Virus record (IMG/VR): IMGVR_UViG_2703718836_000012
Location: 1-35,817 of that record
Length of the DNA: 35,817 bases
Origin: a virus
Lineage: Duplodnaviria > Heunggongvirae > Uroviricota > Caudoviricetes
Direction: 5' to 3' (one strand)
Positions 24,001-30,000 of the stretch are shown here, in pieces. Position numbers: made by a program. Numbering within the stretch: position 1 is the stretch's first letter; the number at the start of each line of letters is the position of its first letter.

Positions 24001-27000
24001 CACCGGAAAGCGTTTTGATCATGGTGACCAGGTCGCTGGCGTTACCATAAAGGCGTTTCCCGGTACGCCACATTTTCTGCACCTGCTCAACGAAATTTTT
24101 GCCTGACGATGGCGGCGGCAGAAGTACCGAGATATCCCCCTGCAACAGCCTGGCGGCATCCGATACGGCAGAATCCACCACTTTCATCGCATCAGAAATA
24201 TACCCCAGCATTATGCTGGCATTACCGATAACGTCGTTCTGCACGAAATCCGCCACGCCATCGATACTGAAACCTCTGAAGCTGTCACTGATGCAGTCAT
24301 CCAGTGCAGAACAGGATGACATCAGCGTCTGCGCCGTCGCCGCACCTGATGTGGGGTAAGAGAGTTCTCCCGCTTCGACAAACTTCAGGTCAAAGCGGAC
24401 AATACGCCCTTCATTCTTCGATGTGCTGACCCGAACTTCCCCGTCAACACAGACTTTCAGCTCACCGTATGTCGGATGGACAAGCGTGCCGGGACCGGGT
24501 TTATTCAGCGCGTCAATCAGGCGATCGCGCTGGTCAAAGCAGTCATCGCCCACCACATAAGCCGTGATGGACGGGCGGAAAGTGACTTTTCCCAGATCTT
24601 CGGTATAGGGTTTGTCGCGGTTCGGATATTCGTGTGTTTCCACACGACGGCCGGTTCCCGCACTTTCTTCTTCAACCTTAAACGGCACACCGCGAAATGA
24701 CGCGTCCTGAAGTCTGTCTTTCCACGTCATATAAACTCCGTACATAAAAAATCCCACCGGAGTGGGACTCATTAACAGATTAATTTTTCATTACCTGCCA
24801 AAGCGCGTATAGCCAACATCATGGCTGACATCAAAACCGCTGGATCGCGTTTCCATAACCCGCATCCCCGGAGGCGAATTCACAAAAGAGACCTTGATCT
24901 CACCATCAACTTTTGGCGCAGAAGCTTTGTTAATCATGAAGGGATTCGAGCCTGTGGCATCGGAGGCGTTGTTTGACTGAGCCGGATCCACCGCCGGATA
25001 AGGTGTGTATCCCCGCGCCGGTATTCCCGTCCCATAAGCATCATAAGCACCCGCGCCCCACTGCGCAGAGTTAATGGCATCGACCGTGTCACCGGAACTG
25101 TCGGTAAACCACTCAATAATTGGCTTCAGCTTGTCCCACATATCCTGAAACCACTTAACAACCGGTCCCCAGTTATTGATCACCATCCCCAGCGGCGACC
25201 AGGCAAAAACCTTCTTAAGAAGTTCCCAGCCAGTCTCAAAATAAGGACCAATGGTTTCCCAGAGTTTCTTAAAATAAGGTCCGACAACATCCCAGTTAGT
25301 GATAATTAATCCCGCAGCCAGGGCTATCGCCGTCGCAATCATGCCAATCGGCGTCATCGACATGATCCTGCTGACAATACTGATGGCACTGCCCACGCCC
25401 ATCAATCCCAGTTTCAGAATCGCAAGACCGGCAGCAAGCCCGACGACGCCGCGAATAACCCGGGGATTTTCATCCGCAAACTTCGTGAATTTTTCCCCCA
25501 ACTCCCCCAGCCATTGCGTGATATTTTTAGCGTCACCAGAAAATGCGCCGCCAATAGCTGCAAGACCGTTAGTTGCGGTCCCCGTCATTGCCTCCCACAG
25601 GTTGGACAGCGTACCAAGCTGTGCCTGAACACGTTTATTCAGGCTGGCCTGTTTATTCATCTTCTGCTGGATCTGATCGTAACCATCCTTTCCTTTATCG
25701 ATCAGGGCATTGACCACCTGAAGGGTTTCGGCATCATCACCAAATATTGCCTTAAGTACACCTGTTCGCTTAACGTCGGTCAGTTTTCGCAGCTTTGCCA
25801 GTTGCTTAAACATGTTATCAAGACCGCCAAAACTCCCTTTGCTGTCAGTAAAATCGAGCTGCACCCCGAGTTTCTGGCGGGCCATGACTTTATTGACGTC
25901 CCTGATTTTCTTAACGCTTAATCCGGACTGGATAACTTTTCGCAGGGCATTACCTGCCGACTCCCCATTCATCCCCATCTGATCCATCATGACGCTGATA
26001 GGGGCAAGGCTCTGTGCAGCCTGAAGACCGTCCTTATTCACCATCTTCAGAACAGAACTGGTTTTAGTGAAGAAGGACAACATGTTGGTATCGTCAACGC
26101 CCAGATAAAACGCCTTCTGGATAGTGTCGAACAGCCCCATCATGTCTTCTGACGCCGTTCCGGTAGCATCCTGCATCTTTGCAGCAAACTCAGCAGCCGC
26201 TTCCGGTGTTTTTTTCAGTTGTACCGCAAGATAAGCTGTCGCTTTACCCACACCACCCAGAATGTTTTCTGCCGGGATCCCCTGACGCACCAGCATCTGC
26301 ATCATGTTCTGGAAATCAGCCGTTGTACCGGGTAGCTGGTTACCCAGACCAATAGCCAGTTTATTGATGTCCTGAAAGCTCTTTCCAACCTCGCCGTTCG
26401 CATCCATCATGGCGACTTTCAGCCCGGTGGCGGCGTTTTCCTGATCGGCATAAGATTTCAGGGAAAGCGTCAGACCCGCTGCCAGTCCGCCACCAAGCGC
26501 CAGCCCACCCTGTGACGCTTCTTCCGCCTGGCGTTTAAATCCCCGGATTTTCTTTTGCATTTTCGACAGCGCGGGAGAAAGCCTGTCGACACCGGTGCTC
26601 AACGCCTTAAGCTCAAATTCCGCCATGTGTGCGTTTCTCCTGCTCTATCCTGTTTGCCTGACTGACCAGCAAGGGAATTTCACTGATCGGCATATTCAGC
26701 AATTCGAAAGGATTAATGCGCCAGTAGCTGGCGCAGTCAAAGAAGCGATCAGTGAGGTATTCAGCCGTCAGGCCTGGAGGAAAAAACCAGCCACAAGCCA
26801 CGCCGCTGCATTCAGGTCTGCCGGAGACATCTGGTCGACAGAGCTTTGCGGCACTTTCGCCAGCCGCACAATGTATTTCGACACCACATGCGCCAGAAGT
26901 CTGACTGACTCATCCTGATTCATCTGGTAGGGATACCCCAGCTCGCGGACATCCTTCCCGGTGGGTTCATCAAACTCCAGTACGGAGAGTGTCTCGCCAT

Positions 27001-30000
27001 GAGCAGTAATCGGTTTCTTTAACTCAAGCTCTTTCATTACTGGTAATCCCCTTCTTCACCGTGGAACTCAAGATCAACCGTGCCTTCTTCGGCATTATGG
27101 TTCGCTTCGCCGTGCAGCCAGGCAGACGACAGTACATAGACCTGACCGTTCGCCAGCTCGGCAGTGATGGTCATCTCATCAGACGAGGTGATTTTGCTTA
27201 CCGGAAAATTCTTCGGCACCTTGAAGGTCCCTTTGACATAAGGCGCACGGTAAGTTTCCTTGCGGTCCACTGAACCGTCCAGGCCGATGATGTCATCGTT
27301 AACCGTTTTGTTCATGGGCACCTCAATGCCGCCGGTCAGCGATAGCTGCTGACCGTCAATTTTGAAATAACAGGTTCCCCCGATACGGGCCATTATGCAG
27401 ACTCCTCTGAATACTGAAGACGGAACTGATTAACCACGGCAAAGACACGCAGCTGGTTAACATAGTCAGGCGGGAACAGCGTGTTCAGGCGGTTCGGATC
27501 GCTGGCATCACGCTCCACAACCAGGTACTGCTTAAACAGTTCGTAGTTTTCCACGATCCCCGCACGCTCAAGCTGACGGTAGGTTGCCAGCAGTTCCCCT
27601 TTGATCACCGCCGGGGTGACAATCGCCTGACCGGGACCAAAGCGGGTACCGTCACTGGCAAGCTTGTGACGCCCGTACTTACTGGTAATGACGGATTTCA
27701 GTTTGCGCAGTACATACGCGCTGGTATGCAGCGTCTCACTGTCGAGGTAACTGTTATCCGCAACCCCGTAAGCGTTTTTCCTGTACGTAGTGACATCACG
27801 CTGAATGCGTAGTACCCCGCTTTCGACATACGCCGTTGCCACGCCATGAGACAGCAGGGTCTGTTGTTCGGTCATCGTGAACCGTTTCCCCTTCGGCGCA
27901 GGCAGCATACCCACCAGCTCACCGGTCTGCGTGGGACGTGCCGGATCGTTGCGGATAAACACCGCTGCGCGGGCGGTACGGCTTGCCGCCAGCTCGTCGG
28001 CAGGCGTCTGGGTCTCTTTTTCGTACCCCGCCAGGGTAATGTGCTGCTGGTTAAACTGGTCACCTGCGGTCACCAGTTCTGACAGCGTGCCGATCTTTGC
28101 CGTATACACATGACCATACAGCTGACGCGCATAGCTCCAGCGACCGCTGGTATCGTTCATCTCGGTCACCAGCGTGTTAACGGAGGCCGTGTCGTTGAAC
28201 GGCAGGCCGATATAATCAAACGGCTCATCCGCCATTGCAGCCACCGCGCCGGTGAGAACCGGAGCACCCGTTCCGGCGGTACCCGTCGCCACGGCAATCT
28301 GTACGCCCGCTGGCAGCACTTCGCCCCCACCAAAGCCGTAGTAATTGAGGCTGACAGGAATTTCATTCCCACAAAGCCCCTTATGACGCGCGGTCAGTGT
28401 GACCACGCCTGCCGAAGATGAAGCCGTAAACGGCAGGGTCGGAACGGCATTGATGGCATCCTGGATACTGCTGGCAATCATCGTGACGTTATCGCCGTTA
28501 GTCACCGGTGCCTGCACGCGGGTACGTCCTACATACACATTCACCGTGCCGGTTTCGGTTGCCACCCCGGTCACCGTCAGCGTAACTGTTGCCGCCGCAC
28601 CTGTGGATTCAGGAACGGCAATCACATACAGCTCGCCAAACGGGTCAGTCTGGCGATAAGCCTCGACCATACGCGCCAGCTGACTTCCCGCACCACAAAT
28701 CTGGCGTGCATAGTCTGCCGACGACATCAGTACCAGACTGTTGGCAACAATCTCTGCACCGTTATTGGCATGACCAATCAGCAGCGATGCTCCGCTGTCC
28801 TGTGCAGTATTCGCCGCCTGGTTATCCATTTCCGCATAAAACAACGGAACCAGCGTATTCGACGGAATGGTGTTAAAGCTTATCGTCATCGGTGTTCACC
28901 TTTTTATTCACGCGCCGGATATCACCCGCTGCTTCACGGCGCAGCCAGTAGTTGTTCTCGTCAACATTTCGCCCTTCGGCGGGCAAAAGGTCGCCGCGGG
29001 CAGGGTCAGGCACTGACCGCCCTTTAACAGGTTTGACAAACATGAGGATCCTCAGGAAGGAAGGGTTATTTCGGTGTGATGTTCGATATCGCCGTCAGGC
29101 CCGTTACCGGGCTCGAGATAATCAACATCAATCGCCAGCGTTTGCAGTTCATCCAGACTGTTCAGATCATCCTGCTGGCGGGTACCCGGAATGGTTTTGC
29201 CGACCACGTTGCCGATACACCAGGTCATGATGGGATTGCCGTCATGATGAAAGCGCCCCGATTCAATTGCCGCTTCCAGCTCTTTCATCGGGTCGGACAT
29301 GTTGGTGTAGTTCTGAATGATGGTGACGGGGTTCAGGTCTTCATCAGCAAGGTCATGTGACAACCCGGTCGCCCCGAAGGGGTCGATGGGTGACTCGCTG
29401 ACCGGGCTGATTTTGTTCGCCGCTTTGGCCTCCTCGAGGATGTAGCGATAATCCACCTCTGCACCATCGGTAACGGTCAGGACGCCCATTTCCACCCATT
29501 TCTGAAAGCGTTCGGCTGTCCGGCGATCTTCATTTTTCTCGACGCTATACACCGTGTCATACGGTACCCAGAAACGCGGGGCCACACTGTAGTAATGCGT
29601 TTTACCGTCAATCTCGCGGGTATAAAGTCGCGCCATGCTGTTCATATCCAGCTTACGCGCCAGGTCAAAGGCCAGAATGCACGGCTGCCCCTCGAACTGC
29701 TCAAGGGTCAGTGATTTATCCTCGCAGCTCTGCCAGCTCACCAGGTTGAAATACGCCGAACGCGCCGACACCCAGATATTGAGGTGTTTTGTTTTAAAGA
29801 CGTTTGCCAGACGGGCGTTATTTTTCGCACGCTGCTGCTGACTTAACAAAAATTCGCGATAAACCGACACGCCAATATTTGGATTGGCTTTTTCCAGCAC
29901 CTGCGGGTCGGTCCAGTCGTCACCTTCATCAACGGTATAGATGATCCCGAACAGTTCATCGTTTGGCACCGAGCCGTTGAGCATCTCGATGACTTCCCGC

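Follow-up and report, generated by a model that had tools for sequence, protein, structure and literature searches.

Does the short gene that precedes the tape measure gene of a tailed phage encode one protein, or two that share a start and part ways at a programmed −1 frameshift? This question is raised by a locus on the minus strand of IMG/VR record IMGVR_UViG_2703718836_000012, analyzed here as a single stretch of 35,817 nt (hereafter the window). From sequence comparisons, the locus appears to hold the pair of tail assembly chaperone genes of a myovirus prophage resembling SfV: a short gene in the zero frame (G) is followed by an extension in the −1 frame (T). We consider it very probable that G and its extended form (GT) are made by a −1 ribosomal slip at a T_TTT_TTC heptamer near the end of G. 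A programmed −1 shift in the tail assembly chaperone, in the G/GT-type arrangement of tailed phages, had been proposed for this window in an earlier note. The comparative evidence gathered here strongly supports it and places the pair between the genes for tube and tape measure. The tail chaperone frameshift is described as conserved among long-tailed phages (Xu, Hendrix & Duda 2004, as cited in PMC2628397 and PMC5009743), and the locus is an unannotated example of this well-known kind rather than a new mechanism.

A Pfam search and a map of open reading frames (ORFs) gave the minus-strand order tail sheath, tail tube, G, T frame, and tape measure gene. The tube gene (27037..27393; 118 aa; PF10618 Tail_tube, E = 5e-33), annotated as tail tube in SfV and RefSeq E. 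coli, lies directly upstream of G, and its stop overlaps the G ATG. Gene G (26768..27037, 89 aa), the equivalent of SfV orf13 and P2 gpE, matches PF10109 Phage_TAC_7 with 60.3 bits (cut-off 25) over profile positions 2–78 of 79, and the match ends at the Gly-Phe-Phe (GFF) slip site. The gene closes with the codons GCT GGT TTT TTC CTC CAG GCC TGA (TGA at 26770..26768), within which T_TTT_TTC (26780..26786) stands in X_XXY_YYZ phase (GG-T TTT TTC), its first T being the third base of the Gly codon. The spacing from heptamer to TGA is 9 nt, near enough to the 10 nt given in the earlier note, which had not stated that the gene lies on the minus strand. From the slip site, the −1 frame stays open for 55 sense codons, a little longer than the "about 52" first counted (26613..26780; sense codons 26780..26616, TGA 26615..26613), and it ends 155 nt beyond the G stop. 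This end falls within the start of the tape measure gene, as had been claimed: the tape measure ATG is at 26626..26624, and the first 14 nt of its ORF are shared with the end of T. The tape measure gene itself (24791..26626; 611 aa; PF10145 PhageMin_Tail, E = 3.5e-27) corresponds to SfV orf14. The +1/−2 frame shuts 2 codons after the G stop, leaving −1 as the only productive shift. Three features of the G/GT type are found here: a position between tube and tape measure genes, an in-phase heptamer near the stop, and a coding frame with no start of its own that ends in the tape measure gene. Two products are predicted, G (89 aa, 9.9 kDa) and the fusion GT (26613..27037; 141 aa, 15.9 kDa), with the junction ...WLVAGFF/PPGLTAEY... 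(the slash marking the shift) and a predicted tryptic junction peptide VPQSSVDQMSPADLNAAAWLVAGFFPPGLTAEYLTDR.

Whether the −1 frame is translated, and whether it is translated as a continuation of G, was evaluated across relatives. Scanning one genome per species yielded 20 loci, in which the chaperone ranges from 100% to 40% identical and which include the betaproteobacterium Derxia gummosa; the window and 17 loci make up a set of 18 distinct sequences, and 11 enterobacterial sequences were used for the scan of synonymous sites. Pairwise differences in the T frame were 0.34, 0.28, and 0.51 at codon positions 1, 2, and 3, with a mean synonymous rate (pS) of 0.63, a mean non-synonymous rate (pN) of 0.15, and a pN/pS of 0.23, falling to 0.20 over codons 4–26, the most constrained part. 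Between the window and Buttiauxella, for instance, pS was 0.80 and pN 0.027. Across the extension, the zero and +1 frames held stops in 55/55 pairs. These comparisons indicate that the −1 frame is under purifying selection and encodes a protein. The peptide motif FDCA.YWRINP..L....L...QANRI is kept to the most distant loci, Derxia having HDVAYFWHISPLEVL...QAGRI. The T frame matches phrog_32181 in PHROGs (E = 2.5e-41; function unassigned there), and neither G, GT, nor T has a model in NCBIfam. AlphaFold2 models the T domain as three helices (mean pLDDT 84), and a Foldseek search of this model against BFVD and the PDB found no match at E < 0.5. When the 55-aa extension was searched with phmmer against 1.84 billion representatives, 10 matches were returned, three of which were rejected as repeat-protein artefacts (P0243–P0245); the others were separately called or mis-assembled T-frame ORFs. 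A PDB sequence search with the fusion profile gave ApcE2 at E = 0.027, which was set aside as a chance match only.

A protein-coding T frame could also be expressed as an independent small gene, from a start of its own or by reinitiation after G. This is how the frame is treated in the record of phage vB_EcoM-689R6, which annotates such an ORF, and in gene 41.5 of D108; gene callers report 53–70-aa versions in a few genomes, and in the window a GTG 15 nt 5′ of the heptamer would open a 62-aa ORF. Such starts are not a shared feature of the relatives, however. From its upstream stop to the heptamer, the −1 frame contains none of the codons ATG, GTG, and TTG in 11/19 sequences, and the upstream starts that do occur are by-products of a conserved Trp codon of G (N-TGG) and have no Shine-Dalgarno sequence. 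Within the extension, 10 of the 11 enterobacterial sequences have no start ahead of codon 26, or none at all, and in the window likewise none precedes codon 26. Since the most constrained segment, codons 4–26, precedes these internal starts, T must be read as a continuation of G, and we regard an independent gene as highly improbable.

The slip site itself is conserved across the same relatives. T_TTT_TTC or T_TTT_TTT stands in phase at the same Gly-Phe-Phe position in 20/20 loci, and in every one of them the −1 frame is open for 41–49 codons beyond the G stop. The distance from heptamer to zero-frame stop varies among the 20 loci (9, 24, 27, or 42 nt); the ST64B clade has T_TTT_TTT, with the stop 63 nt away. 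Among the 18 distinct sequences, the slip-site codons are GGT in 18/18, TTT in 18/18, and TTC in 17 with TTT in 1. By contrast, all four synonymous codons are in use for the Ala and Val residues next to them, and GGC, GGA, and GGT all occur at another Gly column. Codon by codon, the scan of the 11 enterobacterial sequences revealed only two clusters of invariant synonymous sites, one being the heptamer and the other a downstream hairpin discussed below. The arrangement is also widespread. Over the region from orf12 to orf14, the window is 98.6% identical to Shigella phage SfV, and the tube-chaperone-tape measure region is matched in 1,086 of 5,426 complete E. coli genomes, 895 of which match at least 80% of it. 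In tblastn searches, the 141-aa fusion is found as two pieces in two frames (84–100% covered, threshold ≥80%) in 23 phage records, including SfV, SfI, SfII, SfIV, ST64B, phiP27, Edwardsiella EPP-1, and Pantoea AH07.

This distribution bears on the possibility that the site is a product of chance or decay, i.e., that the T region is a non-coding spacer, or the disrupted frame a mutation in a dead prophage, with an incidental heptamer. The prophage is indeed defective (see below), and the inspected records annotate nothing at the site except for one "hypothetical protein". Moreover, TTTTTTC by itself is not enriched, with 12 occurrences in the window compared with 10.3 ± 2.8 in shuffled sequences. 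Because of this, the significance of the site rests on its position, the geometry of the ORFs, and conservation. Viable phages (SfV, SfI, SfII, SfIV, ST64B, and phiP27) share the two-frame layout with all 20 genomic loci, and a pN/pS of 0.2 combined with an invariant heptamer is incompatible with a spacer or a recent mutation. Nor is this conservation an artefact of near-identical sequences, with pS at 0.6–0.9. Six database proteins in which G and T are fused in a single ORF (P0001–P0006, 107–139 aa) are singletons from read-level assemblies whose junctions fall at differing points near the T run, a pattern that points to indel errors in a homopolymer and not to genes fused in nature. Taken together, an origin by chance or decay seems extremely improbable.

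The geometry was also compared with that of other heptamers in the window. Among 34 large ORFs (8,935 codons), 30 in-phase X_XXY_YYZ heptamers were identified, and in only 2/30 does the −1 product pass the gene's own stop: the chaperone site, with 55 codons after the slip, and the end of an HNH endonuclease gene, with 18. In the latter gene (31381..31731, minus strand), an in-phase T_TTA_AAG directly precedes the stop. T_TTA_AAG ranks with the most efficient shift motifs of E. coli (PMC4066793), and the site is probably there by chance.

How would the frame be changed at the chaperone site? We infer that the shift is ribosomal. Most ribosomes would read through the heptamer in the zero frame and release the 89-aa G at its TGA. 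A minority would slip back by 1 base with tRNA-Phe in both the P site (on UUU) and the A site (on UUC), both tRNAs re-pairing on UUU, and would go on to add 55 codons, yielding a 141-aa GT composed of the G body and a three-helix T domain. A single tRNA-Phe (anticodon GAA) reads both UUU and UUC in E. coli, so that the P-site and A-site tRNAs can both re-pair on UUU after the −1 move. Heptamers of the H_HHU_UUY type, moreover, rank among the best shift motifs in E. coli (Sharma et al., PMC4066793).

The closest known system is that of the P2 tail genes (FETUD operon). P2 is likewise a contractile-tail phage with the chaperone gene between its tube and tape measure genes, and its products gpE and gpE+E′ measure 91 and 142 aa, compared with 89 and 141 aa here. 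Its heptamer, T_TTT_TTG, lies at homologous V-G-F codons, (V/A)-G-F being shared, and its extension ends 8 nt inside gene T, where the extension in the window ends 14 nt inside the tape measure gene. P2 gpE matches PF10109 with 47.8 bits over the same profile positions (2–78) as G, again up to the slip site, and all 13 aligned fusions match this family. An hhalign comparison of the 13-sequence fusion profile with a 10-sequence profile of P2-type E+E′ proteins gave E = 4.3e-5 over 116 columns, with the slip sites in the same column. The two systems differ in the last base of the heptamer (G in P2, C or T here), in the distance from heptamer to zero-frame stop (18 nt in P2, 9 nt here), and in the neighboring sheath, tube, and baseplate genes, which here are Mu-like rather than P2-like. 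In addition, the P2 frameshift has been proven by experiment, whereas the present case is known from sequence comparison.

The same 141-aa protein (GFF-PPGL...) could, however, be obtained by transcriptional slippage, with RNA polymerase adding one U on the T6 run to give a U7 mRNA. The conserved element is indeed a homopolymer, T6 in the window and T7 in two other loci (L018 and L019) and the ST64B clade, and UUUUUUU is strongly avoided in all phases of E. coli genes, partly on account of such slippage (PMC4066793). With identical protein products, the sequence data fit either route, and mass spectrometry of the fusion peptide, one of the checks offered in the earlier note, cannot separate the two. 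The homologous P2 site, T_TTT_TTG, is nonetheless documented as a translational frameshift, and the heptamer always obeys the two-tRNA re-pairing rule. The known programmed transcriptional slippage sites in bacteria typically consist of about 8–9 or more identical bases. Runs of T6, or T7 in some relatives, fall short of this length. Transcriptional slippage appears unlikely compared with a ribosomal slip, although it may occur at a low level.

Several observations weigh against ribosomal frameshifting of the P2 type at this locus. In a reporter, U_UUU_UUC shifted at only 0.12% without a stimulator, rising to 0.89% with the IS911 stimulator and 7.6% with the IS3 pseudoknot (PMC4066793 Table S3). 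Across the relatives compared, we found neither a conserved stimulator stem at the canonical 5–9 nt 3′ of the heptamer nor a conserved Shine-Dalgarno-like element upstream of it. The sole structure that is conserved starts 44 nt from the heptamer, and several clades lack it. The T domain has no match to PF06528 Phage_P2_GpE (E ≤ 10) in the window fusion, 12 relatives, or 5 independently called T-frame ORFs, whereas P2 E′ itself scores 78.7 bits against this family, and T alone aligns only weakly with P2 E′ (hhalign P = 0.0056 over 31 columns). Finally, the prophage is defective, and this genome may therefore have ceased to use the signal.

As no canonical stimulator was found, the efficiency of the shift may be low or may depend on an unrecognised element. 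The P2 heptamer, U_UUU_UUG, performs no better in the same reporter (0.12% without a stimulator, 0.25% with the IS911 stimulator, and 0.77% with the IS3 pseudoknot; PMC4066793), and yet frameshifting in P2 in its native context is given in a review as 2–3 times that of lambda, for which G:GT is ~30:1 (PMC5009743). The gap between the reporter values and the native level in P2 indicates that native context matters.

Candidate RNA elements around the slip site were mostly discarded. Folding of the first 97 nt was not unusual (z-score −1.4), a helix enclosing the heptamer proposed by RNAalifold showed no covariation, and a weak stem (GGCC/GGCU) that follows the heptamer by 5 nt was not conserved. 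An IMG/VR scan added 80 loci with G 100% identical and no further covariation information. Scans for promoters and terminators and a search of Rfam found nothing between G and the tape measure gene, which favors the frameshift reading, and nothing relevant on the gene strand.

The structure that is conserved is a hairpin with an 8-bp stem inside the T frame (26717..26735, minus strand; TGCGCCAG-CTA-CTGGCGCA). It starts 44 nt downstream of the heptamer, has no second copy in the window, and covers the codons for the most conserved residues, C-A-S-Y-W-R. All stem bases are invariant among the 11 enterobacterial sequences, including the synonymous positions of the codons TGC, GCC, TAC, and CGC. 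The full stem is present in 13/18 distinct sequences and a 6-bp version in L016; in L017, L018, L020, L023, and the ST64B clade it is broken with no compensating changes, and no covariation was detected. The spacing is wrong for a classical stimulator. The stem is invariant at synonymous sites in enterobacterial relatives whose other synonymous sites are saturated. The hairpin might act as a functional RNA element, tuning the G:GT ratio from an unusually long distance or controlling message stability or translation into the tape measure gene, a possibility that we regard as rather doubtful. If the hairpin did tune the ratio, this could explain how useful levels might be reached from a heptamer of ~0.1% efficiency with no stimulator at 5–9 nt.

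For the function of the two products, the comparison extends to lambda, in which a short chaperone and its rare frameshift-extended form are likewise encoded just upstream of the tape measure gene, and from which the functional model comes (PMC5009743). In systems of the G/GT type, two proteins with a common N-terminus are made at a fixed ratio, tail assembly requires both, and neither is part of the virion. By analogy with lambda G/GT and P2 E/E+E′, the tape measure protein would be coated by numerous copies of G with a small number of GT among them, the T domain would recruit tube protein, and both G and GT would leave the finished tail; we infer the chaperone function on this basis. Lambda differs in being a siphovirus and in its heptamer, G_GGA_AAG, a different slippery sequence read by other tRNAs, and no sequence similarity between lambda gpG/gpGT and the locus was detected.

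The remaining tail genes point to Mu and D108, with homologous DUF2635/gp38, sheath L, tube M, tape measure gp42, N, P, and gp45–48. Mu and D108 also have a frame of ~48 codons between the chaperone and tape measure genes, and the T domain shows weak similarity to that of Mu (hhalign P = 0.0014). In the Foldseek search, the T-domain model had a non-significant match to a 48-aa protein of D108, which by its length only is probably gene 41.5, the Mu-type extension frame. The chaperone of Mu is different, however, at 144 aa with a match to PF23746 Gp41_Mu (9e-35) and a score below the PF10109 cut-off, and Mu reaches its extension by a −2 shift (PMC5009743, PMC2628397). Here PF10109 alone was found, with no PF23746, and the frame that a −2 shift would enter is the one closed just past the G stop. 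By these comparisons, the lineage is one with a Mu-like sheath, tube, and baseplate and what appears to be a P2-type −1 chaperone cassette. It provides an example of mosaic evolution: the chaperone cassette within its Mu-like tail module is of the P2 type and shifts by −1, in contrast to the −2 shift of Mu.

The main value of the finding concerns annotation. The joined product is not annotated in any of six inspected records, i.e., SfV, vB_EcoM-689R6, the PGAP-annotated E. coli 7784 prophage, Pantoea phage AH07, Salmonella phage F1055, and ST64B. Instead, these show an unannotated gap of 85–140 nt before the tape measure gene or, in one record, the −1 frame as a separate "hypothetical protein". 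RefSeq E. coli locus tags skip one number at the frameshift spot (RS01715 to RS01725), and the D108 record lists the Mu-type extension as gene 41.5. Overall, 23 phage records and 1,086 E. coli genomes are concerned, and the T domain is without a Pfam family.

In the window itself, the tail genes belong to a prophage that has lost its head. SfV position 7216 is joined directly to SfV 2140 at ~29183/29184, so that SfV 2141–7215 (5.1 kb) is deleted, a junction absent from the 5,426 complete E. coli genomes. Lost with it are the 3′ end of terL, the genes for portal, protease, major capsid, adaptor, and head closure, orf8 (tail completion), and most of orf9, which PGAP annotates as tail terminator. 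A chimeric TerL ORF of 570 aa spans the junction (29052..30764, minus strand). With the head genes deleted, the prophage cannot make heads, and for this reason the signal says little about function in this genome. The tail module, which the earlier note took to be intact, is so over one stretch: the genes from DUF2635 to tail fibre assembly are present with lengths close to those in SfV, and the frameshift signal is intact, while the loss of orf8 and most of orf9 leaves the module as a whole incomplete. Upstream of the tube gene, the retained stretch includes the tail sheath gene (28889..27393, minus strand; PF04984, PF17482, PF17481).

Two other regions of the window lie outside the tail genes. 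Adjoining the prophage, positions 1 to ~11600 form a separate mobile element. Its plus strand carries a tyrosine integrase (1..1215) and a second integrase fragment (10579..11160), and its minus strand a Phage_cap_E major capsid-like gene (4045..5076) and a DEAD/ResIII helicase (7456..8940). The element may represent a satellite, or an island, that has a capsid gene of its own. Between 13366 and 17900 lies an O-antigen modification cluster, in which gtrA and gtrB are 98% identical to their SfV counterparts; the serotype-specific gene (14891..16132, DUF6056) differs from that of SfV and contains several in-phase T and A runs, and the cluster also includes an Acyl_transf_3 gene at 16851..17900.

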